From Candidatus Eiseniibacteriota bacterium (lineage in GTDB: Bacteria; Eisenbacteria; RBG-16-71-46; SZUA-252): a DNA stretch of 64,000 bases. The translations under genes and the position numbers were made by a program. Positions within the stretch are counted from its first letter, which is position 1, and the number at the start of each line of letters is the position of its first letter. The notes under the pieces are model-generated. The model was not told the DNA's origin, made no database searches, and saw only the letters and a program-made list of their open reading frames with translations. Shown piece after piece: positions 22,431 to 52,985 of the stretch. The stretch spans positions 16,144-80,143 of the forward strand of contig JANMQV010000152.1 of the NCBI GenBank assembly GCA_031370645.1, in the 5' to 3' direction.

Positions 22431-22452
22431 TTCCCGGTGGTAAAATAGAAGG

Positions 22453-30250: not shown

Positions 30251-31054
30251 GTGGCGCCCCGCGCTTCCACCGAAGAACACTGGAATCGATTCTGGACCGA
30301 ACGCGCCGATATCGACGCGGTCTATCCGACGGACGGCCGCGTGGTGGAACAGATCGTGGCCGAGGGCTCGGTGGCGGGGAAGCGGATCATGGAGGTCGGT
30401 GCGGGATCGGGGCGCGACAGCGTGCGGCTCGCCGCTGCGGGCGCCACGGCCGTGATCCTCGACTACTCCGTCCCCTCCCTCGAGACGGCGCGCCGCGTCG
30501 CCGAACGGGAGGGAGTCCGCGCGCACTTCGTCCGCGCCGACGCGCTCCGGCTCCCGTTCCGCGATGGGGCGTTCGACGTCGTCTTCCACCAGGGATTGCT
30601 GGAGCACTTCCGCGATCCGGCGCCGCTCCTTCGCGAGAATGTGCGCGTCCTGGCGCCCGGCGCGCTCCTCTTGGTCGACGTTCCGCAGCGATTCCATCTC
30701 TATACCGTGGCGAAGCACGTCCTCATCGCCATGGGGAAGTGGTTCGCCGGCTGGGAGACAGAATTCTCGATCGGAGAGCTGGAGCGCGCCATGCGAGGGG
30801 CCGGCGTGAGGATCACGAGCCGCTACGGCGCGTGGATGATTCCCGGCCTCTTCTACCGCGGACTCCGCCTCGTTCTCTTGAAGTTTGGTCTGGCGCGGCT
30901 TCCGCTCTACCCGCCGCCCGTGCCGATCGTCACGCCGGTCTCGCGGGCGCTCCGCCGCGCGTGGGAGCAAACCCCCTTCGCGATCCACACCTACTTCGTG
31001 ATCGGAGCGCTCGGCCGGAAGGATGGCGGCGGGGCGACGCCGCGCCGCGCTTGA
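30251..31054 (+). CDS. class I SAM-dependent methyltransferase (Methyltransf_11/25 type)
   Basis: EVGAGSGRD motif I, acidic end of strand 2 (ILDYS), motif post I/II (FDVVFHQGLLEHF). Confidence 0.7.
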   Translation: MAPRASTEEHWNRFWTERADIDAVYPTDGRVVEQIVAEGSVAGKRIMEVGAGSGRDSVRLAAAGATAVILDYSVPSLETARRVAEREGVRAHFVRADALRLPFRDGAFDVVFHQGLLEHFRDPAPLLRENVRVLAPGALLLVDVPQRFHLYTVAKHVLIAMGKWFAGWETEFSIGELERAMRGAGVRITSRYGAWMIPGLFYRGLRLVLLKFGLARLPLYPPPVPIVTPVSRALRRAWEQTPFAIHTYFVIGALGRKDGGGATPRRA

Positions 31055-32172
31055 GAATCGTCGCCCTGAACTGGCGCGATCCGCGGCACCCGGAAGCGGG
31101 CGGCGCCGAACTCCACCTTCTCGAGATCCTCAAGCGCTGCGTTCGCGACGGCGATCAGGTCACCTGGCTCGCCGAAGCATTCCCCGGCGCCGCCGCCGAG
31201 GACGTGGTGGAGGGCATCCGAATCGCTCGCGCGGGCACGTGGTACAATGCCCACCTTGCCCTCGGAGCGCTCTATCGCGCACGGTATCGGAGGGAGCGCG
31301 TCGATTTGGTGCTCGAGGACATCAACAAGGTGCCGTTCTTCACACCGCTCTTCGCGCGCGCCCCGGTGCTCGCGGTGGTGCCTCACCTCTTCGGCGCAAC
31401 CGTCTTTCGCGAGGCACCGATTCCGGTCGGCGCCGTCGTCTGGGCCCACGAATCACTCCTCCCCTTCGTCTACCGACACACTCCCTTTCTCGCCATCTCC
31501 GACAGCACTCGTGAGGATCTCGTCCGCCGGGGAATCGCGCGCGAACGGATCTCCGTCGTCCGCTGCGGGCTCGATCAGAGCGCCTATGCCGTCACGATGC
31601 CTCCCGAGGCGCGCGGCCCTGTTGTGGCGTTCCTGGGGCGACTCCGAAAGTACAAGGGAGCGCAGTTCGTCCTCCGCGCCTTTCCCGCGGTCCTCGCGGC
31701 GGTCCCCGAGGCTCGCCTCGACGTGATCGGCGACGGACCCTATCGCGCGGAGCTCGAGCGGCTCGCCAACCGACTCGGCATCGCGTCGCGCGTTCGGTTT
31801 CTCGGCGCGCTCTCGCACGCGGCCAAGGTGGCCGCCTTGAACGAGGCGCAGGTCGCGACCTGCCCCTCGCCCAAGGAAGGGTGGGGACTCACCGTCATCG
31901 AGGCGAACGCCTGCGGTGCCCCGGTCGTGGCGAGTCGAAGTCCCGGTCTCGTGGAATCGGTCCGCGACGGCGAGACGGGACTCCTCGTCCCGCATGGAGA
32001 CGTCCCGGCGCTGGCCGCCGGCATCACGCGGCTCCTTCGCGATCGCTCGGAGCGGCTCCGGATGGCGGAGGCGGGAAGTCGCTGGGCCGCGACGTTCGAT
32101 TGGGAGACCTGTTATCGCGAGAGCCGCGCCTGTTTCGCGCGCGCGGCGGCGTCGCGGGGAGCGGCCGCGTGA
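31051..32172 (+). CDS. glycosyltransferase family 4
   Basis: GT-B fold with the C-terminal GT4 signature (EGWGLTVIEANACGAPVVASRSPGLVESV). TTG start overlaps the preceding stop. Confidence 0.75.
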   Translation: MRIVALNWRDPRHPEAGGAELHLLEILKRCVRDGDQVTWLAEAFPGAAAEDVVEGIRIARAGTWYNAHLALGALYRARYRRERVDLVLEDINKVPFFTPLFARAPVLAVVPHLFGATVFREAPIPVGAVVWAHESLLPFVYRHTPFLAISDSTREDLVRRGIARERISVVRCGLDQSAYAVTMPPEARGPVVAFLGRLRKYKGAQFVLRAFPAVLAAVPEARLDVIGDGPYRAELERLANRLGIASRVRFLGALSHAAKVAALNEAQVATCPSPKEGWGLTVIEANACGAPVVASRSPGLVESVRDGETGLLVPHGDVPALAAGITRLLRDRSERLRMAEAGSRWAATFDWETCYRESRACFARAAASRGAAA

Positions 32173-33218
32173 CGCCGCGCTGGGGCGAGTTCTTCAAGCG
32201 CTACAAACTTCTCCTCGTGGGGGTGAAGATCGGGCTCTCCCTCGCGCTCTTCGCCTACGTCGTGGCGAAGGTTTCGCCCGGAAACGTCTGGGCGGTGGTC
32301 CGCCACGCCAATCCCACCTATCTCGGCGCCGCGGCGGCGCTCTTCGTCTTCTCGAATCTGGTCGGTTCGTGGCTCTGGGCGAGGCTCCTGCGCGCGCAGG
32401 GGGTGAACATCCCGTATCGAAACGCGGCCGCTTACTATTTCGTCGGCCTCTTCTTCAACAATTTCCTCCCGTCGAACATCGGCGGCGACATCGCGCGGAT
32501 CAGCGACGCCTCGAAGCACGCGACGAACGTCAGTTCGGTGTTCTCCGCCACGCTCATGGATCGGCTCCTCGGCGTCGTTTCGATCGCGCTCCTCGCCGTC
32601 ATCGCGTCGTTCGCCTCGCTCGATCGGTTCCACCTCTACGCCATCTACGGCGGAATCGTGCTCGTCTTCGTCACCTCGCTCGCGCTCTTTCTCAGCATTT
32701 TCCACCGCGGGGTGTTGAAGGCGTTCGAGTGGCCGTTCCGTGTGCTGGGGCTCCGAAAGGTAGAGGAGGGGATCGGACGCCTGCTCGACGACCTCCACGG
32801 GTTCCGGAACGAGAAGGCGGCGCTCCGGGCGGCGTTCCTGGCCAGCTCGCTCGTGCAGATCAGCCGGATCTATGTCCATTACCTGGTTGGCCTTTCCCTG
32901 GGAGTCCAGCTCGCGGCGGGGTACTATTTCCTCTTCGTGCCCGTTTTGGCCGCCCTGGTCTCTCTTCCGATTTCTATGAACGGACTCGGGATCCGGGAGG
33001 GGGCGTCGGTGGTTCTATTTCAGATGGCCGGGCTGACGCGGGAGCAAGCGTTCACGATCCCGTTCGTCACCTATCTCATGTCGGTGTTCATCAGCCTTCT
33101 CGGCGGTTTCATTTTCGTCACGCGGTCGCCTCGTCGCGCCTTGGCTCGGAAACTCGAAGCGAGACGGGAGAAGCGGGCGGAGAAAGCCGCCTCCATCGGT
33201 AGGGAGGACTCTCGGTGA
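32169..33218 (+). CDS. flippase-like membrane protein (lysylphosphatidylglycerol-synthase TM-region family, UPF0104)
   Basis: Eight or so TM helices with the conserved NFLPSNIGGDIAR-type motif of the LPG_synthase_TM / TIGR00374 family. These often sit next to Dpm1/GtrB-like GT2s in glycosylation loci. Confidence 0.55.
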   Translation: MTPRWGEFFKRYKLLLVGVKIGLSLALFAYVVAKVSPGNVWAVVRHANPTYLGAAAALFVFSNLVGSWLWARLLRAQGVNIPYRNAAAYYFVGLFFNNFLPSNIGGDIARISDASKHATNVSSVFSATLMDRLLGVVSIALLAVIASFASLDRFHLYAIYGGIVLVFVTSLALFLSIFHRGVLKAFEWPFRVLGLRKVEEGIGRLLDDLHGFRNEKAALRAAFLASSLVQISRIYVHYLVGLSLGVQLAAGYYFLFVPVLAALVSLPISMNGLGIREGASVVLFQMAGLTREQAFTIPFVTYLMSVFISLLGGFIFVTRSPRRALARKLEARREKRAEKAASIGREDSR

Positions 33219-35809
33219 ATTCATGGAAGCGCTGGCACGCGATCTTCGGCGCGCTCGCCTTGGGCGTACCGCTCTTCGTGTTCCTTCGCACGCTCACGGT
33301 CACGGTCCCGTTCTGGGATTCGGGCGAGTACATCGCCACATCCCGCATTCTCGGCCTTCCGCACCCGCCGGGGAACCCGGTCTACACGATGCTCGGGCGC
33401 ATGCTGACGCTCATCCCCATCGCGAGCATCGCCCAGCGCGTGAACTTCATGAGCGCCCTCGCGTCGGCGCTGACCTGCTTCTTCACCTATCTTGTCGTGG
33501 TCCGCGCGCTTCGCCGCACGTTCGAGGATCGCTTCGAGTCGGGCGCCGCCTGGGTCGCCTGCTTGGTTGGAGGATTGACGGCCGCGTTCTTCGTCGCGTT
33601 CTCCTCGTCGTTCTGGGACAGCGCCATCGAAGCCGAAGTCTATTCGCTCTCCTCGGCGCTCATCGCCTTTACGATGTGGCTCGCGTTCCGCTGGTGGGAC
33701 CGCCTCGATCAGCCGGGGAACGACAAACTGCTGATCCTCGTCACGTACATTCTCGGAGTCTCGACGGGCGTTCACCTCGGCACGATCCTCGTGGCGCCGG
33801 GGCTCCTGTTCCTTCTCGCGCTCATCCGTCCGACGATCTTCACGTCGGGCCGTTTCTGGGCTTCCGCGCTCCTCCTCCTCGGCACCCTCGCGTTTCTCGG
33901 GATCACGGAGGCTTCGGGCTGGAGTCCGCCGCTTCTGGTGCTCATCCTCCTCATCGGGGGTCTCGCCGCCTTTCTCATCTCGCGACGCGACCGGCTGGTG
34001 CGCGACAACCTGGCCACCTGGTGGGCGCTCGCGGTGCTGGTCGGATTTTCGGTGCAGCTCTTCCTTCTCATCCGTAGCCAGCAGATGCCGGCCATCAACG
34101 AGGGAAGCCCCTCCACGTTCGAGGCCTGGAAGGACTATCTCCTCCGGAAGCAGTACGGTCCGTCGAATCCGTTCGATCGCCGCGCCGACCTCTGGTTCCA
34201 GATCACGCACATGTACTTCCGCTACGTCGGGGAGCAGTGGAAGATCATCAACAAGATCGGCTCCCTGGACATCCAATCGTTCTGGGTTCGCCTCGTGAAC
34301 ATGCTTCCCTTCGCTCTCGCGTTCCTCGGGGCGTGGTGGAACGCCCAGCGCGACAAGAAGACCTTCTGGTTCTTCGTCGCGCAAAACGTCATCATGGCGC
34401 CCTTCCTGATTTTCTATCTCAATTTCACCGACCACGAGGTGCGGGAGCGCGACTACTTCTTCACCAACTCCTACCACTTCATCGCCATCTGGATCGGAAT
34501 GGGGGCCGCCGCGCTCCTCCATTCGGTCGTGGAGGCGATCGCGCCGGCGGGAGCGAGGGCCGCGCCGCCGCCGCGCCCGGCCGCCGCCCTGGCGGAAGGG
34601 GCGGGGAGTTCGGAGCCGGGGCCGCTTCCGGCCGCGCCGGCTGCCGCCTGGATCGTCGGCATCGCGCTCATCGGCTTCTCGGCGCTGCCGGCTCGCGCCG
34701 GATGGTTCGAGCACGACCGGTCGAATTTCTGGATCGCGCAGAACTACGCCTACAACATGCTCGCCCCGCTCGCGCCGAACTCGATCGTCATGACGAATGG
34801 CGACAACGACACCTTCCCGCTCTGGTACATCCAGGAGGTGGAAGGATTCCGGAAAGACATCCGAGTCGTGAACATGAGCCTCCTGAACACGCCCTGGTAC
34901 ATCCTCCAGTTGAAGAATCTCGAGCCGAAGGTCCCCTTCAGTTACACCGACGCGGAGATCGAGAAGCTCTACCCCTACCTCGACGAAAAATCGGGGCAGG
35001 TCGTCTGGGTGAAGGACCTCGCCGTGAAGAACATGATGGCGGCGAACGCCTGGAATAAGCCCGTCTACTTGGCCGTCACCGTTCCCGATCAGATGGGGAT
35101 GGACAAGCAACTGACGCTCGAGGGGCTGGTCTATCGGATCTCCCCCCAGCCCGTCACGAACGAGATCGATCTCAACCGGACCATGAAGAACCTCTACGAG
35201 GTCTTCAGATATCGCGGGCTCCTTGACGCGAATCGGAATTTCGACAAGGCGGTGTATAAGGACGATAACGCGATGCGCCTGGTGCAGAACTATTCGGCGG
35301 CGCACGTCCAGGTGGCCTATCAGCTCCAGTCGCAGCAGCGCCCGGCGGAGGCGATCAAGGTTCTCGAGGACGCGCGGAAGATCTCTCCCGACTTCCCGGG
35401 TCTGCTCGAATATCTGGGCCGTCTCTACGACCAGACCGGGAATCCAGCGAAGGCGGAGGCGTACTACCGCGAGGGCCTGGAGCGATTCCCGAGTTCGCCC
35501 GAGTTCTACTTCCATCTCGGCACGCTCGCCTACCGGCAAGGCAAAGTCGACGAGGCCGTGCAACTCCTCCGCCGCGCGACCGAGCTGAGCCAGCAATACT
35601 TCGATTGGTACAGCGCGCTCTTCACGGTCCTCTGGCAGACGGGGCAGAAGGCGGAAGCGATCGATGTCCTCCGCAACTGGCTCCGCGCCCATCCCGAGGA
35701 TCAGCAGACGTCGGAGGAGATCAAGCGCTTCGAGGATTCGCTCCGGACCGCTCCGCCGGGATTGCAGGACAAGTTGCGAACCTCCGGCTCGCGGGCCTTG
35801 GTTCGTTGA
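33215..35809 (+). CDS. DUF2723/TMEM260-like GT-C-fold membrane glycosyltransferase candidate with C-terminal TPR repeats
   Basis: Polytopic N-terminal half with the FWDSGEYIATS...LGLPHPPGNPVY signature recalled for DUF2723 (PMT/ArnT-related GT-C). A roughly 40-aa Ala/Pro linker. The C-terminal soluble region has TPR repeats (AEAYYREGLERFPSSPEFYFHLGTLAYRQGKVDEAVQLLRRA). Confidence 0.55.
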   Translation: MNSWKRWHAIFGALALGVPLFVFLRTLTVTVPFWDSGEYIATSRILGLPHPPGNPVYTMLGRMLTLIPIASIAQRVNFMSALASALTCFFTYLVVVRALRRTFEDRFESGAAWVACLVGGLTAAFFVAFSSSFWDSAIEAEVYSLSSALIAFTMWLAFRWWDRLDQPGNDKLLILVTYILGVSTGVHLGTILVAPGLLFLLALIRPTIFTSGRFWASALLLLGTLAFLGITEASGWSPPLLVLILLIGGLAAFLISRRDRLVRDNLATWWALAVLVGFSVQLFLLIRSQQMPAINEGSPSTFEAWKDYLLRKQYGPSNPFDRRADLWFQITHMYFRYVGEQWKIINKIGSLDIQSFWVRLVNMLPFALAFLGAWWNAQRDKKTFWFFVAQNVIMAPFLIFYLNFTDHEVRERDYFFTNSYHFIAIWIGMGAAALLHSVVEAIAPAGARAAPPPRPAAALAEGAGSSEPGPLPAAPAAAWIVGIALIGFSALPARAGWFEHDRSNFWIAQNYAYNMLAPLAPNSIVMTNGDNDTFPLWYIQEVEGFRKDIRVVNMSLLNTPWYILQLKNLEPKVPFSYTDAEIEKLYPYLDEKSGQVVWVKDLAVKNMMAANAWNKPVYLAVTVPDQMGMDKQLTLEGLVYRISPQPVTNEIDLNRTMKNLYEVFRYRGLLDANRNFDKAVYKDDNAMRLVQNYSAAHVQVAYQLQSQQRPAEAIKVLEDARKISPDFPGLLEYLGRLYDQTGNPAKAEAYYREGLERFPSSPEFYFHLGTLAYRQGKVDEAVQLLRRATELSQQYFDWYSALFTVLWQTGQKAEAIDVLRNWLRAHPEDQQTSEEIKRFEDSLRTAPPGLQDKLRTSGSRALVR

Positions 35810-35816
35810 GAGGCCG

Positions 35817-36770
35817 ATGCGCGCGCTCGTGACGGGGGCGGCTGGATTCATCGGTTCGAGCCTCGTCGACGCCCTGCTCGAATCGGGGGTGGAGGTGATC
35901 GGCTTCGATGCGTTCACCGGCAATTACGATGCGACGCGGAAACGGGCGAATCTGGAAGGCGCGCTCGGCCGGCGCGGATTCCGGCTCGTGGAGGGGGATC
36001 TCCGCCACGCCTCGCTGGCTCCGCTCCTCGAGGGGACGACGCACGTTGTCCATCTCGCGGCGCTTCCCGGCGTGCGCGCCAGCTGGGGCGAAGCGTTTCG
36101 CGACTACGCCGAACACAACGTGGTCGGCACGCAGCGGCTCTTGGAGGCGGTGCGGGCGTCGGGCCGCGTGGAGCGGCTCGTGGCCGCGTCGAGCAGCAGC
36201 GTCTATGGCATGCCGCGGCGCTTTCCCACACCGGAGGATGAACCGCCGCGTCCGCTCTCGCCCTACGGCGTGACCAAGGTGGCGACCGAGTCCCTTCTGC
36301 AATCGTATCGGGCCTCGTTCGGCGTGCCGGCGGTGGCCCTTCGTTATTTCACGGTGTACGGACCGCGCCAGCGCCCCGACATGGGGATCCATCGCTTCTT
36401 CGAGGCGGCTCGGGCGGGGAAGCCGGTCACCCTGTTCGGAGACGGAAAGCAGACCCGCGACTTCACGTTCGTGGAGGACGCCGTTCGCGCGACGGTGGCG
36501 GCCATGACGCGGCCCGCCCCCGAACCGGCGTACAATGTCGGCGGTGGGCATCGCGTCTCGCTCGGCGACCTCCTCGACTCGATCGCGGGCGTCGCCGGCA
36601 AGCCGGTCGCGCGCCGCCATGTGGAGGCGCAAGCGGGCGATCCGCGCGATACGTCGGCCGACACGACGCTCGCGAGGCGCGATCTCGGTTACGCGCCTGC
36701 GACGGCGCTCCTCGACGGACTCCGGAGGCAATGGGAATGGCAGCGGAACTTGGCGGCGGCGCCGGCGTGA
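35817..36770 (+). CDS. NAD-dependent epimerase/dehydratase (UDP-sugar 4-epimerase-like SDR)
   Basis: TGAAGFIGS Rossmann motif and the YxxxK catalytic dyad (SPYGVTK). Extended SDR family. Confidence 0.85.
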   Translation: MRALVTGAAGFIGSSLVDALLESGVEVIGFDAFTGNYDATRKRANLEGALGRRGFRLVEGDLRHASLAPLLEGTTHVVHLAALPGVRASWGEAFRDYAEHNVVGTQRLLEAVRASGRVERLVAASSSSVYGMPRRFPTPEDEPPRPLSPYGVTKVATESLLQSYRASFGVPAVALRYFTVYGPRQRPDMGIHRFFEAARAGKPVTLFGDGKQTRDFTFVEDAVRATVAAMTRPAPEPAYNVGGGHRVSLGDLLDSIAGVAGKPVARRHVEAQAGDPRDTSADTTLARRDLGYAPATALLDGLRRQWEWQRNLAAAPA

Positions 36771-37702: not shown

Positions 37703-37742
37703 CGCTTCGGCGCCCGCGCATGGCGTCGGCCCTCGCCCTCCG

Positions 37743-44628: not shown

Positions 44629-45338
44629 AAGCGCTCGTCATCATCCCGACCTACAACGAACGGGAGAACCTCACCGAGCTCCTTCGCCAGATCTTCGCGC
44701 TCGGCATCGGCCTCGAGGTTCTGATCGTGGACGACAACTCGCCGGACCGCACCGGGCAGTTGGCGGACGAGATGGCCGCCGCCGACCCGCACATCCACGT
44801 GCTCCATCGCGCGGGGAAGATGGGACTCGGTTCGGCCTACGTGGCGGGGTTTCGCTACGCCCTCGATCGCGACTACGAGGCGATCTTCGAGATGGACGCC
44901 GACTTCTCGCACAGTCCCGAGAGCCTGCCGGTGTTCCTGAAGGAACTCGAGTCGGCCGACCTCGTCCTCGGTTCTCGCTATCTGCACGGCGTGACGGTCG
45001 TGAACTGGCCGCTCAGCCGCCTCATTCTTTCCTACGCGGCGAATGTCTACAGCCGCGTCATCACGGGCATGAACATCAAGGACGCCACCGGCGGCTTCAA
45101 ATGCTTCCGGCGCCAAGTGCTCGAAGCGATCGATTGGAGTCGCGTGAAATCGGACGGCTACGGATTCCAGATCGAGATCAACTTCAAGGCGTTCCGGAAG
45201 GGATTCCGCATCAAGGAGATTCCGATCCTCTTCGTCGACCGGCGCGCCGGGGAGTCGAAGATGTCGCGGAAGATCGTATGGGAGGCCGCCTACATGGTTT
45301 GGCGCCTGCGGGTCCTCGACCTCATCGGGGCGCTGTAG
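44625..45338 (+). CDS. polyprenol-monophosphate mannose/sugar synthase (DPM1-like GT2)
   Basis: VIIPTYNEREN, VDDNSPDRTG and the FEMDADFSH DxD region are close to the Dpm1/Ppm1 family. A soluble form without a TM tail. Confidence 0.8.
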   Translation: MKALVIIPTYNERENLTELLRQIFALGIGLEVLIVDDNSPDRTGQLADEMAAADPHIHVLHRAGKMGLGSAYVAGFRYALDRDYEAIFEMDADFSHSPESLPVFLKELESADLVLGSRYLHGVTVVNWPLSRLILSYAANVYSRVITGMNIKDATGGFKCFRRQVLEAIDWSRVKSDGYGFQIEINFKAFRKGFRIKEIPILFVDRRAGESKMSRKIVWEAAYMVWRLRVLDLIGAL

Positions 45339-45349
45339 CCCGCGCGCCC

Positions 45350-47302
45350 ATGGGCGTCTCCCTCGTCGTCGTCCACTACCGCACCCGGGAGCCGCTCGCT
45401 CGCCTTCTGGCGTCGCTTCGCACCGCGCGCCCGGCTCCCGTGCGCGAGCTCATCATCGTGAACAACTCGGGCGAGCCGCTCGACGACCTGGTCGCGGGCT
45501 CCGGTCTTCCGACGCGTGTTCTCTCGCCGGGGAAGAATCTTGGATACGCGGGGGGCGTGAACCTCGGCATCCGCGCGGCGACCGAGGAGGATGTGCTGAT
45601 CCTGAACCCCGACATCCAGGTGACGCCGGGGTCGGTGGAGGCGCTCGTCCTCTGCGCCGAGCAGCGGCCGCGCGCCGGACTCGTGGCCCCGAAGCTCGTC
45701 TTCCCGGACGGAACGCTTCAGCTTTCCGTCCGGCGCTTCTACAATGCGAAAACACTCCTCCTCCGCCGGCTCCCACTGGGACCGATGGCGGAGCGGAGTC
45801 GAATCGTCCGCGACCACTTGATGGCCGATTGGGATCACGAGGAGTCGCGCCCCGTCGACTGGGCGCTCGGCGCCGCCCTCTTCGCGCGGCGGCGTGCCAT
45901 GCGGGACGTCGGGCTCATGGACGAGCGCTACTTCCTCTACTTCGAAGACGTCGATTGGTGCGAGCGGATGTGGCGCCACGGCTTCGAAGTGGTCTACTGC
46001 GCCGAGTCGCGCATGGTGCACGAGCACCAACGCGCCAGCGCCCGTCTCGAACCGCGGTCGTGGAAGGCCCATGCCGCGGGACTCCTCCGATTCGCGGAAA
46101 AGTGGAGTGCCGTCCTTTACGCCGTGAGCCAATACCGCCGCCGCATCGTGCAGGGCGTCGCTCTCGCGGGCGACCTGATCGCCGTCTCCGCCGCGTTCCT
46201 GGCGGCGTACGGCTTTCGCCTGCTCCTCGATCCGTGGTTCGAGAAGCCGGTCTTTCCGCTTCCGAACTACCGCGGTCTCTTCGTCTTCGCCCTCGCCATG
46301 ACCATTGCCTCCCTCGCCTGGAACGGACTCTATCGCCGTCTCTCGTTCACGGACGGAATCGATCGCGCGTTTTCGCTCGGGCGCGCCGTCGTGCAGGCGG
46401 GACTCCTCGTCATGGCGGCGACGTTCTTCTTCCAGACGCCCCGATTCTCGCGCGTCCTCGTCCTCCTCCTGGGGCCGCTCTGTTTCGGAATGCTTCTCGT
46501 CTCTCGCGCCGCGGTGGAGCGGCTCGGCGCCGGGGCGCGGCGACACGGTTTCGCCTTCCGCCGCGTGCTCCTCCTCGGGAGCGGCGAAGCGGCGGCGCGC
46601 GCGCGCGCGGCGCTCGAGGAAGCACGGGGCGAAGGGTTCGAGCCGCTTCGCGCCGAGTACTCGGGTCCCGAAGGGGAGACGCCGGAGGCAGCCGCGGCGA
46701 GGCTTCGGACTCTCGTCGCGACGGAACGAATCCAGATCGTCCTCCTCGTTCCCGACGAGCTGGAGCTTCCGCATCTCCTCGCCGTCGGCGCGGCCCTCCG
46801 CGAGTGCGGCGCGGCCATCTGGTGGGCCGGCCCGGCCGCGCTCTTGGCCCCGCTCGGCGCCGAGTCGCGGCTCGGCCCGCTTGACGCCGTGCTCCTCCAC
46901 ACTCCCTCGCGCGGACTCGGTCCGCGCACGCGGAAGCGAGTGAGCGATCTCTTCCTTTCGTTCTTGGTGGCGCCGTGGCGCTGGGGTGGGCTCCGCGCCT
47001 ATCTCGCCGCGCACGAGGAGCCGCTCCGTCCCGCCGAAGCGTGGCGCCAAGTGTGGAGCGGAGAACGCTCCTGGGTAGGCCGGAGCCGGTACGAAGTCGA
47101 TCGCTGGGCCGGCATACCGTCGTGGGCGCGGCTCGCGCTCCAAACGCTTCGCCCCGGGGTCGTCTCGCCCGCGCTCTCGAGCAAGAACGGCGCCGATCGC
47201 ACCGCGCGCTTGGAGTCCGAGCTCGCCTATCTCTCTCGATTCTCGATGGCGGAGGACCTGCGGCTCTTCCTTCGCGCGACGCGCGGGCAGGGAACCCGAT
47301 GA
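45350..47302 (+). CDS. fusion protein: N-terminal GT2 (rhamnosyltransferase-like) + polytopic region with degenerate polyprenyl-glycosylphosphotransferase (WbaP-like) features
   Basis: Residues 1-250 form a complete GT2 domain (VVVHYRT, NNSG, NLGYAGGVN, YFEDVDWCERM). Then come TM helices and a CoA-binding-like segment arranged as in the WbaP N-terminus. The C-terminus keeps only fragments of the Bac_transf catalytic domain. Confidence 0.6.
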   Translation: MGVSLVVVHYRTREPLARLLASLRTARPAPVRELIIVNNSGEPLDDLVAGSGLPTRVLSPGKNLGYAGGVNLGIRAATEEDVLILNPDIQVTPGSVEALVLCAEQRPRAGLVAPKLVFPDGTLQLSVRRFYNAKTLLLRRLPLGPMAERSRIVRDHLMADWDHEESRPVDWALGAALFARRRAMRDVGLMDERYFLYFEDVDWCERMWRHGFEVVYCAESRMVHEHQRASARLEPRSWKAHAAGLLRFAEKWSAVLYAVSQYRRRIVQGVALAGDLIAVSAAFLAAYGFRLLLDPWFEKPVFPLPNYRGLFVFALAMTIASLAWNGLYRRLSFTDGIDRAFSLGRAVVQAGLLVMAATFFFQTPRFSRVLVLLLGPLCFGMLLVSRAAVERLGAGARRHGFAFRRVLLLGSGEAAARARAALEEARGEGFEPLRAEYSGPEGETPEAAAARLRTLVATERIQIVLLVPDELELPHLLAVGAALRECGAAIWWAGPAALLAPLGAESRLGPLDAVLLHTPSRGLGPRTRKRVSDLFLSFLVAPWRWGGLRAYLAAHEEPLRPAEAWRQVWSGERSWVGRSRYEVDRWAGIPSWARLALQTLRPGVVSPALSSKNGADRTARLESELAYLSRFSMAEDLRLFLRATRGQGTR

Positions 47303-49500
47303 GGCGCTCCGTCGTGGCGGCATGGGCGCTCGTGCTCGTGGCGATCTCGATCGTTCCGTCCGCCGCCGAGAGCGCGACCCGGGTGTTTATCGTGAATCAC
47401 GTCGCGTCGAACGACATCCGCGGAGCGGCGCCGTGGGGCGCGTCCCTGGCGCTCGCCACAAACGGCGGGCTCGTCTTCGCCGACACGGCAACCGGGGGCA
47501 CCTCGAAAGTCCTTCGCCGAAGCGGCGGGCTCGCGTCGAACAACCTCATGGCGATCGCCGCCAGTCCCGCCGGCGCCCTCTGGATCGGCACCGCCGATCT
47601 CGGCCTCTCGCGGTACCGGCCCGACGGGACGTTCCCTCGAACGCTCACGTCGTTTGACGGACTCCCGAGCGATCGCGTGCAGGCGCTCCTCCGATCGGGG
47701 GACAGCGTCTGGGTCGCGACGAGCGGCGGCGTCGCCCTCTTCGCCGAGAACCCGGCCAACGGCCAGATCGCGCTCCGACGCTCCGATTCGAAGGCGAGCA
47801 CCGGGGGCGCGTTGGTGAGCGACGACGTGACGTCGTTCGCGGTCTGGAACGACACGCTCTGGTGCGGCACGAACGCGGGGCTCTCGATCTTCGCCTCCGG
47901 AGTCTGGAGCGCGCGAAGTTCCATCGTCTCCGAGCGAGTGCAGGCGCTCCTGGTCGAGCGCGACACGCTCTGGGTCGGAACGAAGACGGGACTTCGCGCC
48001 TACGCCGGTGGAGCCGTCGCGTCGCGCGGGCTGGCGATCGAGACGCTCGCGCTGGCGGCCATTCCCGGCGGCGTCGGGCGCGGAACCACCATCGGCCCTT
48101 ACCTCGAGTCGCCCGACGGCCTCGAGACATCGCTCGGGCTCGCCGGGCTTCCAATCGCGCGCGTCCAAGTGATGACCGCGACCGGCTCCTCGCGCGTGGT
48201 GGCGGGGACCGCGACGGGCCTCGCGCGGCGCGTCGAGGGCGCGACCCCCTGGGAGCCGATCCGGAGCGCCGGCCCCGAGTGGAACGGCGGCTCCCGCGTC
48301 TCGGCGGGAGGAGGAAACGTTTGGGTGACGCTCGGGAACGCGGTCCCGCCCGGATTGGGTATCGGGAGCGTCATGCGCTACGACGGGACGTCGTGGTCGA
48401 TCCTTACCAGCGCCTCGACGGGCGGCAATTTACAGGATGCGGGCGCCATCGGAGTCCTGGCGGCGAGGGACGGCCGGCTCTGGGTCGGGCACTGCTGTTC
48501 GGGCTCGCTCGGGCCCTCGCGCCCTCGCGCCGATCGCTGGGATCCGGGCGCCGACGTCTGGGATCGCCCCGCCGCCTATAACATCATCGCGCTCGCGCAG
48601 GCGCCCTCCGGCCGCGTCTTCGCCGCGGGCGTCGAATACGAGAACGGCCTCTATCTCCTCGACGGGACGACGGCCGCGCTGCTCGATTCCCTCACGCCCG
48701 GGAACACGAACTCCGGGCTGAGCCGAAACAATCTCCGCGACGTCGCGTTCGATCCGTCGGGTCGCGCCTGGATCGCGACGGTCGACAACGGCGTCGATCG
48801 CTGGAACGGAAACGGCACCGACGATCACGCCGACGACGGCTGGACGCACTTCGCGGGCATCGGCTTCCCGAGTCTCCAGACCACGGCGATCGCCGTCGTC
48901 GCCGGCAACGACGCGTGGGTCGGGACGCGAGGCGGAGCGGTTCGAATTGCGAACGACGCGGTCGACCTCTTGGCCACGTCGCGCGCCAACAGCGCCATCG
49001 GCGGCGCGGAGGTGAACGACCTCGCGGTGGACGACGACCATGCCGTTTGGATCGCCACCGCCGGCGGATTGACGCGGATCTCCCCCTCCGGGCAGATCGA
49101 GCGATTCGGCGCAGACGACGGGCTCGCGGACGAAGACGTGCTGGCGCTCTCGTGGGACGGCGCACGCGAGATCCTCTGGGCGGTCACCGCCGGAGGGGTT
49201 TCGGAGATTCACCCCGCCCTCTCCACGCGCGCGTCGTTCGACGACGGGAGCTACGTCTATCCCAATCCCGCGACCGCGGCGAGCGCGCCGATTCGGCTGG
49301 GCGGCATCTCGGGCGAGATTCGCGGCGAGATCCGAGATCTCTCGGGAACGCGCATTCGTTCCTTTCACGCGAACCCCGTCGCCACCGCCGTCTGGGATCT
49401 CCGCGACGAGCAGGGATCGATCGTGGCTCCGGGAATCTATCTCGTGGTGCTCCGTCAGGGCGACCTGACGCGCGTGCTCCGCGTGGCGGTCACGCGATGA
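47299..49500 (+). CDS. secreted beta-propeller protein (two-component-regulator-propeller / Reg_prop repeats) with T9SS-type C-terminal sorting domain
   Basis: Signal peptide. Repeated LW(I/V)GT..GL motifs (LWIGTADLGLSRY, VWVATSGGVALF, LWCGTNAGLSIF, LWVGTKTGLRAY, VWIATAGGLTRI). The last roughly 90 aa (YVYPNPATAAS...GIYLVVLRQGDLTRVLRVAVTR) resemble a T9SS CTD. Confidence 0.55.
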   Translation: MRRSVVAAWALVLVAISIVPSAAESATRVFIVNHVASNDIRGAAPWGASLALATNGGLVFADTATGGTSKVLRRSGGLASNNLMAIAASPAGALWIGTADLGLSRYRPDGTFPRTLTSFDGLPSDRVQALLRSGDSVWVATSGGVALFAENPANGQIALRRSDSKASTGGALVSDDVTSFAVWNDTLWCGTNAGLSIFASGVWSARSSIVSERVQALLVERDTLWVGTKTGLRAYAGGAVASRGLAIETLALAAIPGGVGRGTTIGPYLESPDGLETSLGLAGLPIARVQVMTATGSSRVVAGTATGLARRVEGATPWEPIRSAGPEWNGGSRVSAGGGNVWVTLGNAVPPGLGIGSVMRYDGTSWSILTSASTGGNLQDAGAIGVLAARDGRLWVGHCCSGSLGPSRPRADRWDPGADVWDRPAAYNIIALAQAPSGRVFAAGVEYENGLYLLDGTTAALLDSLTPGNTNSGLSRNNLRDVAFDPSGRAWIATVDNGVDRWNGNGTDDHADDGWTHFAGIGFPSLQTTAIAVVAGNDAWVGTRGGAVRIANDAVDLLATSRANSAIGGAEVNDLAVDDDHAVWIATAGGLTRISPSGQIERFGADDGLADEDVLALSWDGAREILWAVTAGGVSEIHPALSTRASFDDGSYVYPNPATAASAPIRLGGISGEIRGEIRDLSGTRIRSFHANPVATAVWDLRDEQGSIVAPGIYLVVLRQGDLTRVLRVAVTR

Positions 49501-49525
49501 CGCCGCGCGCGCTCTCCGACTCGCG

Positions 49526-50500
49526 ATGAAATTCGAGTCGCCGCTCGTCCTCGTTTCGCCTCCCGATCGCGAGCGCTGGGACGCGCTCGTCGCGGGCGCG
49601 CCGGGGGCGAGCTTCATCCACACACCGGCGTGGGCCAAACTCTGGACCGACGAATGGCCGGACTCCCGCTGGGAAGCGCTCGTGGTGGAGGAAGGGGGCG
49701 CCTACGCCGCGGGGCTCGGAGCGATCGTTCGGCGCCGCGGGCCGTTTCGCACGATCGACGCCATGCCCTTCGCCACCTACGGCGGGCCACTCGTCCGAAA
49801 GGGACACCCCGACCCCCGCGGCCTCTCGACGGCGCTCCTCGAAGGATTCGCCCGATGGATCGGAGGCCCCTTCGTGCTCCGCGCTTCGCTGGCGTGGGAG
49901 CGGGGCGATCGCGACGCGTTTCCCGACCGCCTGCCTCCGCTCGAGTCGTTCACGCACGTGCTGCCGCTGTCGGCGGATTACGAGGAGGTCGCGTCCCACT
50001 TCTCTCCCTCCACGCGACGGCTCGTTCGGCAGGCCGACGAGAGCGGCCTTTCGATCGAAACGGCCGACACGATCGAAAAGATCGGCGCCTTCTACGGCCT
50101 GGCCGTGGAAACCGTGCGGCGCCGCGGCGGCACGCCGAAGCCGCGATCGCTCTACGAACGGATCTTTCACGATCTCGTCTCGAAGGGATCGGGACGCTAT
50201 CACCTCGTCCGTCACGGCGAGAACGTGGTGGCGGGGAGCCTCCATTTTTTCCACGAGGGCGTGGCGACGAACTGGCTCCCGGTTTCGAGCGAGGCGGCGT
50301 GGCCGCTTCGGCCGAATAATTTCCTCATCGCCTCGATCCTCGAAACGCTGAGCGCCGCGGGCTACCTGGAATACAACTTCGGCGCCTCGCCCCCCGACGC
50401 CTCGGGTCTCATCCGCTACAAAGAGGGGTGGGGCGCGCGGAGCCGCCCCGTCCTTCTCGCGGGGCGCCGCTCGGGACTCCACCGGCGCTTCCGCCCGTAG
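49526..50500 (+). CDS. FemAB-like / GNAT-fold acyltransferase (peptidoglycan-bridge-formation fold; often seen next to EPS loci)
   Basis: Length and duplicated GNAT-like fold arrangement (NWLPVSSEAAWPLRPNNFLIASILE). No closer family motif confirmed. Confidence 0.45.
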   Translation: MKFESPLVLVSPPDRERWDALVAGAPGASFIHTPAWAKLWTDEWPDSRWEALVVEEGGAYAAGLGAIVRRRGPFRTIDAMPFATYGGPLVRKGHPDPRGLSTALLEGFARWIGGPFVLRASLAWERGDRDAFPDRLPPLESFTHVLPLSADYEEVASHFSPSTRRLVRQADESGLSIETADTIEKIGAFYGLAVETVRRRGGTPKPRSLYERIFHDLVSKGSGRYHLVRHGENVVAGSLHFFHEGVATNWLPVSSEAAWPLRPNNFLIASILETLSAAGYLEYNFGASPPDASGLIRYKEGWGARSRPVLLAGRRSGLHRRFRP

Positions 50501-50508
50501 GCCGACGC

Positions 50509-51651
50509 GTGCGGATCCTCCTCCTCGCGCACGCACCGTCGATCCACACGCAGCGCTGGGCGCGGTCGCTCGGGGCGCGGGGGCACGACGTGCGGCTTCT
50601 CTCGGTGACGCCGGCGCCGAGCGCGGCCGTCCCGGGCGAGCCGATCGGTTGGCGCGGCGCGCCGCTTCCGTTTCTCCGCTATGCCGCCGCGCGGGGAAAG
50701 GTGCGGCGCGTGCTCGAGTCGTGGAAGCCGGACGCGACGGTCGCGCACTTTCTTCCGAATTACGGGTTCCTCGCCATGCTCTCCGGCGCGCATCCCTTCG
50801 TGCTGACGGCGTGGGGCTCCGATCTCCTCGTGAACGCCCGCCGCTCGCCGTTTCACGAGGCGCGCGCTCGCGCGGTGCTGGGGCGCGCCTCGCTGATCCA
50901 CGTCGATTCCGAGAATCTCGCCGTCGCCGCGCGGGCGCTTGGCGCCGAGCCCCACCGCCTCTGGATGCGCCCGTGGGGCGTGGAGGTGGACGCCCTCGCG
51001 CCCGCGTCGCCCTGGAATGAGCGACGCGTGCGCGCCGGCGCGATCCGCGTCCTCTGGAATCGGATGCTCGAACCGCTCTACGATCCCGAGACCTTGCTTC
51101 GGGCGCTCGAGGCGCTCCGACGGAGCGGCCGCGATGTACGAGCCACGATCGCGGGGGACGGTCCGCTCCGTCCCGCGCTCGAGGTCGCTGCTGCGCGTCT
51201 CGGCCTCGCCGCGAACGTCCGCTTCACCGGGCGGGTGGACGAAGCGGCGATGCGCGCCCTCTACCGGGAACATGAGTTCTACGTCTCCATGTCCCGATCC
51301 GATTCCACTTCGCAGTCGCTCCTCGAGGCGATGGCGTCGGGGCTCTATCCGATTGTGAGCGACATCGCGGGGAACCTCCCCTGGGTGCGGGGCGCCGCGG
51401 CCGCGCGCGAAGCGGCGGGCGATGCGGGGCGCCTCGTGCCTTGCGGCGACGACCGTGCGTTGGCGGCGGCGATCATCGCGGCGGCCGACGATCCCGATGG
51501 CGCGGAACGAATCGCTCGAGGGATCGCGCGCGTTCGCGCGGAGGCGGACTGGAGAGAGACCGTGTCGCAATTCGAGGCGCGGCTCGCCCTGCTTTCGCGC
51601 GACGCCCGAAACGGCGCGGGAGCAGGACCCGGGGGAGCGAGCCGGGCATGA
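50509..51651 (+). CDS. glycosyltransferase family 4
   Basis: GT-B fold. C-terminal GT4 motif (SRSDSTSQSLLEAMASGLYPIVSDIAGN). Confidence 0.7.
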   Translation: MRILLLAHAPSIHTQRWARSLGARGHDVRLLSVTPAPSAAVPGEPIGWRGAPLPFLRYAAARGKVRRVLESWKPDATVAHFLPNYGFLAMLSGAHPFVLTAWGSDLLVNARRSPFHEARARAVLGRASLIHVDSENLAVAARALGAEPHRLWMRPWGVEVDALAPASPWNERRVRAGAIRVLWNRMLEPLYDPETLLRALEALRRSGRDVRATIAGDGPLRPALEVAAARLGLAANVRFTGRVDEAAMRALYREHEFYVSMSRSDSTSQSLLEAMASGLYPIVSDIAGNLPWVRGAAAAREAAGDAGRLVPCGDDRALAAAIIAAADDPDGAERIARGIARVRAEADWRETVSQFEARLALLSRDARNGAGAGPGGASRA

Positions 51652-52985
51652 AACGGCTTCTCGTCCTCGCCTACTTCTTTCCGCCCCTCGGCGGCGGCGG
51701 ATGCCAGCGGACGCTCAAACTCGTTCGCTACCTCGAACCGAACGGATGGGTCTCCACCGTGGTGACGGTGAAGGAACCCGACTACTGGATCCTCGACCCG
51801 ACGCTCCTCGAGGAGATTCCCGCTTCGTGCGAGGTGGCCCGCGTGAGCGCGCTGACTTCGCAGCGTCTCCTCCGCCTCCTTGGGGGTGCGGGCGTTCAAC
51901 TGGAGGAGCGACAGGGGACTCGGCGCGCGGGAGCCTTCCGCGCTCTGAGACGCCTGCAGCAATTCGTCGCGATCCCCGACGGCTATCGCCCCTGGGCGCG
52001 CGCCGCCGAGCGCGCCGCCGCTGCGCGCCTCGCGAAGGGAGGCATCGACGCGCTCTGGACCACGTCGTCGCCCGAGAGCGCGCATCTCGCCGGCCTCGCG
52101 CTGAAACGGAAATTCGCGCTCCCGTGGATCGCCGACTTTCGTGATCCGTGGGTCGGGCGCGTCACCTATGCGCCTCCCACCGCGTGGCACGATCGCCGGC
52201 ACCGCGCGCTCGAACGTGAAGTCGTCGCCACCGCCGATCGCGTCACTGTCGTGAGCGAAGCCATGGCGGCGCGGTTCCGGGAGCGCTATCCCGCGCTCGG
52301 CCCCGCGCACTTCGTCGTGCTTCCGAACGGATACGACCCCGACGACTGGGCGCGTGTCGCGCGACTCCCGTTGTCGCTCGAGCCGGACGCGGCTCGTGAG
52401 GCCGACGCGCGGCGTTTCGTCGTGCTTCATGCCGGCCAGCTGGCGCATCGCCCCACCGTCGGCGACCTGCTCGCCGCCGTGGCCCGCCTCGTGGAGGAAT
52501 CGCCCGCACGCCGGAAGACGCTTCGGCTCCGTTTCATGGGTGGAAACGAAGGGCTCGACGCGGCGACCGTGGCGCGGAAGGGGCTCTCGGAGGTCGTGGA
52601 TCTTCTGCCGTCGCGTCCCCACCTCGAGGCGATGGCGGCCATGAGGCGGGCGAATCTCCTTGTCCTCTTGGGCCATGGCGGAGAGGCCGATTCCCAACTC
52701 TACACGGGGAAAATCTACGAATACCTCACGAGTGGAACGCCGCTTGTCGGCGTCCTCGGCCCAGGCCCGGCCAGCGACCTCATCTCCCGAGCGGGAGGCG
52801 GCCGCGCGTGTCTTCCAGGGGACGTAGATGGCGTCTGTTCCGCGATTCGATCCCCCCTGGAGGCCTGGGAACGACATGAAAAGCGGCAGGACCTCCCACT
52901 TCCAGCGATCGCCGTCGAGTGGGAGCGCCGAACCATGGCCCGGCAGGCCGCCGAACTCCTCGATTCAGTCCATTCCAAGCGCTAG
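51648..52985 (+). CDS. glycosyltransferase family 4
   Basis: N-terminal FFPPLGGGGCQRT motif typical of GT4 enzymes acting on membrane-bound acceptors. C-terminal GT-B Rossmann domain. Confidence 0.7.
   Translation: MKRLLVLAYFFPPLGGGGCQRTLKLVRYLEPNGWVSTVVTVKEPDYWILDPTLLEEIPASCEVARVSALTSQRLLRLLGGAGVQLEERQGTRRAGAFRALRRLQQFVAIPDGYRPWARAAERAAAARLAKGGIDALWTTSSPESAHLAGLALKRKFALPWIADFRDPWVGRVTYAPPTAWHDRRHRALEREVVATADRVTVVSEAMAARFRERYPALGPAHFVVLPNGYDPDDWARVARLPLSLEPDAAREADARRFVVLHAGQLAHRPTVGDLLAAVARLVEESPARRKTLRLRFMGGNEGLDAATVARKGLSEVVDLLPSRPHLEAMAAMRRANLLVLLGHGGEADSQLYTGKIYEYLTSGTPLVGVLGPGPASDLISRAGGGRACLPGDVDGVCSAIRSPLEAWERHEKRQDLPLPAIAVEWERRTMARQAAELLDSVHSKR

Follow-up and report, generated by a model that had tools for sequence, protein, structure and literature searches.

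The window analysed here is a stretch of 64,000 nucleotides from a Candidatus Eiseniibacteriota bacterium (GenBank assembly GCA_031370645.1, contig JANMQV010000152.1). At 30251-52985 it carries a glycosylation locus in which two pairs of sugar-donor synthase and GT-C-type glycosyltransferase, together with a flippase-like membrane protein, stand next to a distant homologue of PorZ, a type IX secretion system (T9SS) component, and a transferase of the VimA type. An original prediction made from the letters alone had placed a glycosylation locus here; the locus is real and every functional class then named is present. We have established the family or fold of its components, their operon-like coupling and their synteny across the phylum. 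Genes were called from third-position GC (guanine plus cytosine) content, Pfam matches and the gene calls of L008, a contig from an independent ENA assembly that is 99.5% identical to the window over 16.8 kb (other loci are likewise referred to by number), and family scans covered the main open reading frames (ORFs) across the 64 kb rather than every small one. The genes are as follows, GT2 and GT4 denoting glycosyltransferase families 2 and 4.

29524-30249, plus strand: calcineurin-like metallophosphoesterase (Pfam Metallophos, E 1e-15), of uncertain membership in the locus
30251-31054, plus strand: S-adenosylmethionine (SAM)-dependent methyltransferase (Pfam Methyltransf_11, E 9e-21), its stop overlapping the GT4a start by 4 bp
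31051-32172, plus strand: GT4a, retaining GT-B glycosyltransferase of the MshA/PimA/PimB/BshA type (Pfam Glycos_transf_1, E 1e-39)
32169-33218, plus strand: stand-alone MprF-type flippase-like membrane protein, LPG_synthase_TM / UPF0104 / PplT (Pfam PF03706, E 1.6e-41)
33215-35809, plus strand: TMEM260-like (DUF2723) GT-C protein of 864 aa with C-terminal tetratricopeptide repeats (TPR) (PF11028, E 1.2e-48, and TPR families)
35817-36770, plus strand: nucleotide-sugar epimerase/dehydratase of the short-chain dehydrogenase/reductase (SDR) family (Pfam Epimerase, E 1.7e-60), start taken from the L008 gene call
36737-37702, plus strand: ArnC/GtrB/PgfS-type polyprenyl-phosphate GT2 with two C-terminal transmembrane helices (PDB ArnC 8vxh, E 6.5e-47)
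37743-38900, plus strand: GT4b (Pfam Glyco_trans_1_4, E 2e-23), 66-86% identical in related loci
38897-39873, plus strand: GT2, rhamnosyltransferase/GlfT1-like, frameshifted, with the N- and C-terminal GT2 halves in two frames
39797-40939, minus strand: GT4c (Pfam Glycos_transf_1, E 3e-30), in the same orientation in all related loci
41042-42211, plus strand: GT4d, TuaH-like, heading the downstream operon (Pfam Glyco_trans_1_4, E 5e-10; NCBIfam TuaH, E 1e-25, below cut-off)
42208-44628, plus strand: YfhO-family GT-C glycosyltransferase (PF09586; GT-C fold by structure prediction)
44625-45338, plus strand: Dpm1-type polyprenyl-phosphate-hexose synthase, a GT2 lacking transmembrane segments (PDB 5mlz, E 3.4e-38)
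45350-47302, plus strand: 650-aa protein made of a GT2 domain, four transmembrane segments, a CoA_binding_3-like domain and a degenerate phosphoglycosyltransferase (PGT) remnant (Pfam GT2 and CoA_binding_3)
47299-49500, plus strand: distant PorZ homologue, carrying a signal peptide, two beta-propellers and a putative C-terminal domain (CTD) of the T9SS type (NCBIfam T9SS_PorZ, E 1.3e-19)
49526-50500, plus strand: VimA-type FemAB/Acetyltransf_6 protein, aminoacyl-tRNA-dependent-like (Pfam Acetyltransf_6, E 1e-18; FemAB, E 3e-6)
50509-51651, plus strand: GT4e (Pfam Glyco_trans_4_2 and Glycos_transf_1), start chosen at GTG 50509, kept after the VimA-like gene
51648-52985, plus strand: GT4f, the last gene before mraZ (Pfam Glyco_transf_4, E 3e-12), overlapping GT4e by 4 bp

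Counted in this way, 30251-52985 holds 17 genes (18 with the conserved metallophosphoesterase) rather than the 20 first listed, and six GT4s rather than seven. Start and stop codons overlap by 4 bp at eight junctions. GT4c, on the minus strand, is convergent with the preceding GT2 and is separated from GT4d by a divergent gap of 102 bp; the locus is therefore not fully co-directional, as had been claimed, and comprises at least three transcription units. A promoter and terminator scan returned terminators at chance level and a single promoter-like site, located 5' of mraZ, where the 218-bp gap after GT4f contains a sigma70-like site at 53075-53103. In the frameshifted GT2 at 38897-39873, one base pair near 39168 is missing by comparison with L001 and L008; the gene is intact in L008 (325 aa), as in all orthologues, and the frameshift is either an assembly error or the mark of a strain-specific or very recent pseudogene.

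Two GT-C transferases and their donor synthases

The product of 33215-35809 matches PF11028 at 165.7 bits, against a cut-off of 24.2, has about ten transmembrane segments and carries its TPR at approximately residues 670-840. When it is compared with the structure of human TMEM260 (9rql, E 8e-18), the stretch FWDSGEY aligns to GGDSGEL with DSGE kept as the acidic motif of the first extracytoplasmic loop, and on the strength of this alignment we read the DSGE loop as the probable counterpart of the loop that holds the proposed catalytic Asp52 of the human enzyme. Human TMEM260 is a protein O-mannosyltransferase acting on immunoglobulin (Ig)-like IPT domains; a literature search turned up no functional study of bacterial DUF2723 proteins. 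Orthologues of the TMEM260-like protein are 58-86% identical throughout Eisenbacteria. For the YfhO-like protein at 42208-44628 the family match is above the gathering score (PF09586, 34.9 bits versus 28.5) and its alignment takes in the last 70 residues only. Among the matches listed (n=120), nearly all homologues of this protein carry a precomputed PF09586 match. A PDB sequence search with it gave nothing useful, and the assignment was settled by structure prediction. The structures matched by the GT-C folds include AftA, AftB, AftD, Emb, ArnT and PimE. Both large membrane proteins thus have GT-C folds, which rules out the possibility that they are transporters of unrelated families.

Each of these enzymes has a likely donor synthase close by. 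The ArnC-like GT2 aligns over its full length both with ArnC (8vxh, residues 7-308) and with GtrB (5ekp, E 3e-33), its transmembrane helices lie at 249-267 and 284-302, and its NCBIfam matches to ArnC (E 4e-47) and PgfS (E 2e-38) both fall below cut-off. The Dpm1-like GT2, which overlaps the stop of the YfhO-like gene by 4 bp and is the best conserved protein of the locus (about 80% identity), aligns through residues 1-229 with the catalytic part of the Pyrococcus furiosus Dol-P-Man synthase 5mlz and has no transmembrane segment of its own. Between the TMEM260-like and ArnC-like genes lies the SDR epimerase, matched by NCBIfam GalE and dTDP-glucose dehydratase models at E about 2e-45, both below their cut-offs. 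The locus therefore holds two complete synthase and GT-C transferase pairs, each adjacent or translationally coupled, plus the flippase-like protein, and the earlier calls for all four enzymes (a GtrB-like GT2 with a transmembrane tail, a Dpm1-like GT2, a DUF2723/TMEM260-like protein with TPR and a YfhO-like GT-C) are borne out. GT4d always stands 5' of the YfhO-like gene, in L004, L044 and L045 as elsewhere.

The flippase-like protein, also correctly named from the start, scores above cut-off with both PF03706 (143 bits versus 33.4) and TIGR00374 (79.9 bits versus 43.2) and has at least five hydrophobic segments; a PDB sequence search returned no match for it, and its assignment comes from Pfam and NCBIfam. 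We found no match in the locus to the small flippases of the GtrA/GtcA family or the ArnE/F type. Stand-alone MprF-type flippase proteins are widespread and often fused to glycosyltransferases (bioRxiv 10.1101/2022.03.11.483950). In GpgSDF of Pseudomonas aeruginosa, a GT4 and a UPF0104 protein make and supposedly move the glycolipid glucosaminyl (GlcN)-phosphatidylglycerol, with flippase activity unproven even for GpgF (PMC12713373). GT4a runs 4 bp into the flippase-like gene and matches MshA (3c4q), PimB' (3okc) and PimA (2gej) in the PDB; NCBIfam MshA matches it at E 8e-36, below cut-off, and the model for N-acetylglucosaminyl-phosphatidylglycerol (GlcNAc-PG) synthase only weakly (E 5e-9). 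As a separate observation, the window encodes a homologue of BshC, of bacillithiol synthesis, at 5225-6895 (plus strand), and GT4a, with sub-threshold matches to BshA and MshA, may be a recruited relative of a thiol-pathway GT4.

These modules can be set against several known systems. With the three-component systems GtrABC, ArnC/ArnE-F/ArnT, CsbB/GtcA/YfhO and Streptococcus mutans PgfS/PgfM1/PgfE/PgfM2, the locus shares a GT2 synthase with a transmembrane tail and GT-C enzymes, one of them of the YfhO family, and with the Pgf system also an epimerase adjoining the synthase. It differs from them in having no GtrA/GtcA or ArnE/F flippase, the sole candidate being the MprF-type LPG_synthase_TM protein, in having two modules rather than one, placed among eight cytoplasmic glycosyltransferases, and in that the second synthase is of the Dpm1 type without transmembrane segments. 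With human TMEM260 and DPM1 it has in common PF11028, the DSGE loop, C-terminal TPR and a Dpm1-type synthase in the same locus; the human enzyme, however, works in the endoplasmic reticulum and the bacterial one would sit in the inner membrane, and the nearest donor synthase gene here is ArnC-like, not Dpm1-like. GpgSDF of P. aeruginosa, HexSDF of Clostridioides difficile and MprF share with the locus a GT4 gene translationally coupled to a stand-alone LPG_synthase_TM gene. As for MprF, the locus also encodes a transferase of the FemAB/dupli-GNAT type, which we take to be the fold class of the MprF synthase domain. Unlike GpgSDF and HexSDF, the locus has no deacetylase, GT4a is only weakly like GlcNAc-PG synthases, and 16 kb separate the FemAB gene from the flippase-like one. 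Finally, GT4 steps, a Dpm1-type synthase and GT-C extension recall the mycobacterial assembly of phosphatidylinositol mannosides (PIM), lipomannan (LM), lipoarabinomannan (LAM) and arabinogalactan (PimA/PimB, Ppm1, PimE/Mpt/Aft/Emb); here, though, the likeness is at family level only, the organism is a diderm of the Fibrobacteres-Chlorobi-Bacteroidetes group, and a phosphatidylinositol acceptor is unsupported.

A PorZ homologue beside a VimA-type transferase

Within the T9SS, PorZ passes the glycolipid that serves as anchor on to the sortase. The propeller protein at 47299-49500 had been taken for a T9SS-sorted protein and a possible substrate of the locus; it is not merely a substrate candidate, and we conclude that it is a distant homologue of PorZ, not an equivalog. 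The T9SS_PorZ model (NF052228), its only significant NCBIfam match, is matched by 31 of 31 orthologues (best E 7.8e-27), and Por_Secre_tail (TIGR04183) by nine of the 31 at E<=1e-3; in the C-terminal alignment consensus of the family, YPNP and GVY motifs can be made out by eye. Against PorZ of Porphyromonas gingivalis (5m11) the family profile aligns at E 6.9e-26 in one collinear stretch, 296-740 versus 274-758, whereas hybrid-sensor domains of Bacteroides match it only as scattered repeats. An AlphaFold2 model (pLDDT 91.5) found 5m11 as its top PDB match in Foldseek (E 4e-30), with full-length TM-scores of 0.65/0.64, compared with 0.33 for hybrid two-component sensors. The protein thus has the PorZ layout, in which a C-terminal beta-sandwich comes after the two propellers. 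We considered whether the protein might itself be such a sensor, with which it shares Reg_prop repeats, and rejected this on the low TM-score, the lack of any kinase-domain match and the presence of a signal peptide and a putative CTD. It is the least conserved protein of the locus (43-50% identity).

The company that this gene keeps is regular. It begins in an ATGA overlap with the gene upstream; in 23 of 26 loci the GT2-PGT fusion lies directly 5' of it, and in all 30 loci with enough sequence the FemAB gene lies directly 3', with both GT4 genes kept thereafter in the longer loci. The segment 45350-52985 thus reads WbaP-derived fusion, PorZ-like, VimA-like, GT4, GT4. As had been suspected, the PGT domain of the fusion is degenerate: TIGR03025, a model of exopolysaccharide (EPS) sugar transferases, aligns at its positions 2-269 of 445 only, Bac_transf (PF02397) reaches 13.2 bits against a cut-off of 27 and covers model positions 97-173 only, and by eye the lysine, KFRTM and DPR segments are missing. 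The domain is degenerate in every lineage examined, and the fused PGT can be ruled out as a working initiator. The FemAB-like acyltransferase was likewise correctly recognised; its PDB matches are aminoacyl-tRNA-dependent peptide synthases (9wqy, E 4.7e-7).

Two divergent loci tie the PorZ-like protein to glycan enzymes by other arrangements. At 13119-17282 of L045 (GCA_030017955.1), GT2, PGT remnant and PorZ-like double propeller form one ORF of 1387 aa, the parts being joined through a hydrophobic stretch resembling a signal peptide. In L044 (477-5237), from a divergent Eisenbacteria metagenome-assembled genome (MAG), a PorZ-like gene of 26% identity directly follows the YfhO-like gene and the Dpm1-like GT2, without the GT2-PGT fusion between them, so that the link between PorZ and the YfhO module holds even without that gene. 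Fusion and adjacency speak for a functional connection of the PorZ-like protein with the making of glycans. Downstream of the fused ORF, L045 continues with genes for a PglF-like dehydratase, Wzx, a GT4 and a GT2; upstream of it are a DegT aminotransferase and a B12-radical SAM gene.

VimA is reported to match TIGR03019, and an exchange of vimA to alter which amino acid, Ser or Gly, sits on the linking sugar that is amide-bonded to T9SS cargo (Veith et al., PMC7468200). A 2026 model for P. gingivalis has the linker built on undecaprenyl pyrophosphate (Und-PP) by WbaP, GtfC, GtfF and VimF, with vimF lying in the vim operon (PMC13086638). What the present locus shares with this attachment pathway, by which cargo is joined to anionic lipopolysaccharide (A-LPS) through PorZ, PorU, VimA/VimE/VimF, WbaP and GtfC/F, is a two-propeller PorZ-like protein with a putative CTD, a TIGR03019/FemAB transferase, adjacent GT4s (compare vimF) and a WbaP-derived protein directly upstream. 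Here the PorZ-like gene and the linker-type genes lie in one operon, unlike in P. gingivalis, where porZ and the vim genes are not known to be linked. The two GT-C modules and the MprF-type protein, on the other hand, have no counterpart among the A-LPS-specific genes of PMC7468200 and PMC13086638.

Elsewhere in the window, 22444-25227 (plus strand) encodes a protein of 927 aa with a C-terminal FlgD_ig / T9SS sorting domain and no Pfam match over its first 819 residues. Its gene is likewise found upstream of the rib operon in L001, L003 and L005, and the product may be T9SS cargo.

Conservation of gene order

The gene-neighbourhood comparison that had been proposed was carried out by scanning GTDB species representatives with the PorZ-like profile, which yielded 36 loci, mostly Eisenbacteria MAGs with a few under other phylum labels that we take to be misbinned; the scan is silent on other phyla. 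The PorZ-like gene is above threshold in 35 of the 36, and all 35 are collinear. Eleven loci are long enough to show all twelve genes from GT4b to mraZ. Orthologue contexts at 85%, 61% and 48-49% identity agree with the window in gene content and gene order from nusB to mraZ, and nearly every homologue of three locus proteins carries the label Candidatus Eisenbacteria. Upstream of the locus lie ribD, ribBA, ribH and nusB, followed by the metallophosphoesterase, which occupies the place between nusB and the methyltransferase also in L001, L003, L004, L005, L008 and in metagenome loci; farther upstream are nuoF/G, adenosine deaminase, bshC, hemE, a Band 7 protein, lipA, mgtE, a SurA-like protein and radC. 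Downstream come mraZ, a STAS gene, mraW, PBP3, murE, mraY, murD and ftsW, that is, the dcw cluster.

The order kept in 35 of 35 loci is far beyond chance. Since the loci are collinear at a fixed site between nusB and mraZ, this is not a variable EPS island, and acquisition as a horizontally transferred island is ruled out by the phylum-wide synteny together with a uniform base composition (about 68% GC in the window, with no compositional break at the locus). The full arrangement is a hallmark of Eisenbacteria and near relatives, and the locus behaves as part of the core envelope gene set.

At greater distance the arrangement breaks into blocks. Deep lineages (38-43% identity) keep a first block of metallophosphoesterase, methyltransferase, GT4a, flippase, TMEM260, (epimerase) and ArnC-like genes; a second block, GT4d followed by YfhO, is present in L004 and L045, with the Dpm1-like GT2 next in L045. 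The middle part is variable in these lineages, a Wzx-type (Polysacc_synt) gene occurring in L005 and L045. A metagenome scan with the TMEM260-like profile found divergent high-GC lineages as well as 66 distant DUF2723 loci (<=33% identity). The former have a nine-gene core (methyltransferase, GT4a, flippase, TMEM260, epimerase, ArnC-like, GT4b, YfhO, Dpm1-like), followed by GT2/PGT, and the contiguity of the two GT-C modules in this core fits the idea of a functional unit. The latter, most of which have a lower GC than the window and probably belong to other phyla, show partial pairings only: a GT2 directly downstream in about half, the methyltransferase-GT4a pair in 8-11 and LPG_synthase_TM in seven. 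This suggests a general DUF2723-GT2 partnership beyond Eisenbacteria. Within the same set, the GT2 directly downstream is most like the N-terminal domain of the 45350 fusion in 22 of the 66 loci, ArnC- or Dpm1-like GT2s occur in about 15 of the 66, and L054, L057 and L063 have tandem DUF2723 duplicates.

What the locus may make

How might these parts work together? We give a probability of roughly one in two to the reading that the product of the locus is a surface glycolipid or lipoglycan, bearing an aminoacylated linking sugar, to which T9SS cargo is covalently anchored, and that the two GT-C modules decorate it in the periplasm. The substrates, a lipid as anchor, the sequence of steps and the part played by the T9SS are inferred from the gene content, as follows. 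In the cytoplasm, the six GT4s and two soluble-type GT2s would build an oligosaccharide on a membrane lipid, with the epimerase and the methyltransferase supplying or modifying sugars, and the VimA-type FemAB protein would add an amino acid to an amino sugar, leaving a free amine for the T9SS sortase. The lipid-linked intermediate, the polyprenyl-phosphate sugars or both would then be moved to the periplasmic face, for which the MprF-type flippase-like protein is the candidate. There, the two GT-C enzymes would add sugars from polyprenyl-phosphate donors, each with its own donor synthase: the TMEM260-like/TPR protein would be served by the ArnC-type GT2 and the epimerase, the YfhO-like protein by the Dpm1-type GT2. 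The PorZ homologue, exported by the T9SS, might bind the finished glycolipid at the outer membrane and present it to a PorU-type sortase, which would join it to the C-termini of cargo proteins.

Several observations weigh against this reading. The T9SS_PorZ match of the propeller protein reaches 70.2 bits where the equivalog cut-off is 260, covers the C-terminal half only and goes with an identity to PorZ of about 19%; its Por_Secre_tail score (16.3 bits) is below the cut-off of 23. We saw no porU, porV, sprA or porK-N within the window. The sole NCBIfam match of the FemAB protein, TIGR03019 at E 6.3e-14, is below its 260-bit cut-off, and proteins of the FemAB/TIGR03019 kind are found as well in EPS loci that have no connection with T9SS. 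Compared with the P. gingivalis pathway, then, the locus differs in phylum, in PorZ identity and in scores below curated cut-offs, and it differs in content too: the locus matches no deacetylase family, whereas VimA has the CE4 deacetylase VimE, along with the glycosyltransferase VimF, as operon partner; it also has no Wbp-pathway genes and no functional initiating PGT, its only one being degenerate. Nor was any match to Wzx, Wzy, Wza, Wzc or ABC exporter families, as the original prediction had also reported, or to Wzz or WaaL, found in the locus or among the main ORFs of the 64 kb. With Wbp genes, VimE, WaaL, Wzy, Wzx and a functional PGT all absent from it, the locus points to no particular amino sugar, lipid carrier or route of export. 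The TPR domain and the human precedent, moreover, suggest a protein acceptor for at least the TMEM260-like enzyme, which fits the protein glycosylation first proposed better than it fits a glycolipid anchor.

Keeping these points in mind, the part of the original prediction that posited a periplasmic glycosylation system stands, carried by the two synthase/GT-C pairs, the flippase-like protein and the lack of Wzx and Wzy; the suggestion that T9SS cargo is what becomes glycosylated gives way, since PorZ homology combined with a VimA-type neighbour in 30 of 30 loci makes it more likely that the T9SS link lies in anchor synthesis than in periplasmic cargo glycosylation. That the locus might still serve mainly periplasmic protein glycosylation, the GT-C enzymes putting single sugars on Ser/Thr of envelope proteins (possibly T9SS cargo or Ig-like domains) while the GT4s and GT2s extend these or serve another product and the PorZ-like protein acts as substrate or accessory lectin, we consider possible but doubtful. 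The DSGE loop and C-terminal TPR are those of the human protein O-mannosyltransferase, the combination of ArnC/PgfS-like GT2, epimerase and GT-C mirrors the S. mutans Pgf genes (NCBIfam PgfS, PgfM1, PgfM2), and the nine-gene core of the divergent lineages consists mostly of these parts. Pgf glycosylates adhesins, and YfhO enzymes work with CsbB-type GT2s. What this reading leaves unexplained is the presence of six GT4s, the WbaP-derived fusion, the VimA-type transferase, the PorZ-VimA linkage and the L045 fusion, and we know of no glycosylation role described for PorZ in Bacteroidota. The type of acceptor, in any case, is not readable from sequence, and among the GT-C relatives AftD, ArnT and PimE act on lipids or glycans.

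The large number of GT4 and GT2 genes, together with an epimerase and a methyltransferase, would also suit an ordinary Wzx/Wzy O-antigen or EPS cluster whose missing parts lie elsewhere in the genome, with the GT-C pairs decorating side branches as Gtr does on O-antigen; the equivalent locus of the deep relatives L005 and L045 does have a Wzx gene, L045 adds a PglF-like dehydratase and a DegT aminotransferase, and the fused PGT remnant betrays WbaP-type descent. O-antigen and EPS loci, however, are usually strain-variable, whereas this one is collinear in 35 of 35 related loci at a fixed core-genome site; beyond the lack of matches to Wzx, Wzy, Wzz, Wza, Wzc, WaaL and ABC exporters among the main ORFs of the 64 kb, the flanks within the window are housekeeping genes, the rib operon with nusB on one side and the dcw cluster on the other, the PGT is degenerate in each lineage examined, and the embedded PorZ homologue goes unaccounted for. 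We regard this explanation as improbable, although the Wzx genes of the deep relatives leave it, and with it a conventional Und-PP/Wzx branch in this genome, some probability. Improbable too, in our view, is a T9SS-independent lipoglycan akin to PIM/LM/LAM or lipoteichoic acid, with a structural role near cell-wall synthesis, in which GT4a would glycosylate a phospholipid, the MprF-type protein flip the product and the GT-C enzymes lengthen it on the outer side with sugars from polyprenyl phosphate, leaving the propeller as a glycan-binding surface protein. In its favour, MshA, PimA and PimB' are the closest matches of GT4a, whose gene overlaps that of the flippase-like protein, the GT4 plus UPF0104 systems GpgSDF and HexSDF make glycolipids, a Dpm1-type synthase with a GT-C follows the logic of mannosyltransferases that depend on polyprenyl-phosphate mannose (PimE, AftA, AftB and AftD being among the fold matches), and the locus lies beside the dcw cluster in all lineages. 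Yet it passes over the specific match in fold to PorZ, the putative CTD and the VimA-type gene next door, GT4a resembles PimA and MshA only in a generic way and scores below all the curated cut-offs, and this account overlaps the anchoring of T9SS cargo to a glycolipid to the point where it could merely describe how the anchor is constructed.

The anchoring reading can be sharpened into a more specific proposal, which we think unlikely: instead of lipopolysaccharide, a lipoglycan of its own would anchor the cargo in Eisenbacteria, made by a route that uses no Wzx, Wzy or WaaL and runs from GT4 action on a membrane lipid through VimA-type aminoacylation in the cytoplasm, MprF-type flipping and two GT-C extensions to delivery by PorZ to the sortase. 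If true, bacterial DUF2723 proteins would thereby gain their first described function, and a T9SS attachment pathway would be known for the first time outside Bacteroidota.

The component families and both logics, three-component GT-C glycosylation and PorZ/VimA attachment, are already known. Judging from the literature searched, what appears to be undescribed is their union in one fixed, phylum-wide locus outside Bacteroidota, an MprF-type protein in the place of GtrA, a bacterial relative of TMEM260 with a clear genetic context, and a PorZ homologue genetically coupled, and in one lineage fused, to glycan enzymes; the same search found nothing relevant on T9SS in Eisenbacteria. The locus offers a concrete place to look for T9SS cargo anchoring outside Bacteroidota. 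It also puts a bacterial TMEM260/DUF2723 enzyme into a defined context, with a likely donor synthase, epimerase and translocator, so that heterologous reconstitution becomes possible; human TMEM260 is a disease gene, and to our knowledge no function has been described for bacterial DUF2723 members. It further suggests that MprF-type flippase-like proteins take part in GT-C-based glycoconjugate pathways, and a large glycan locus fixed beside the division cluster throughout a phylum points to a basic envelope component of abundant uncultured soil bacteria.

Three other genes of the window deserve mention in their own right. Between mraZ and mraW, at 53563-54093 (plus strand), lies an ORF with a STAS_2 domain of the anti-sigma-antagonist type, found also in L006 and L007; such an insertion at the head of the dcw cluster is unusual. 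The PBP3/FtsI-like division transpeptidase at 55524-57614 (plus strand) has two C-terminal PASTA domains, which are mostly known from Gram-positive bacteria. Upstream of the locus, 17610-20630 (plus strand) encodes an unusually long SurA-like periplasmic chaperone of 1006 aa, with SurA N-terminal and PPIC rotamase domains.

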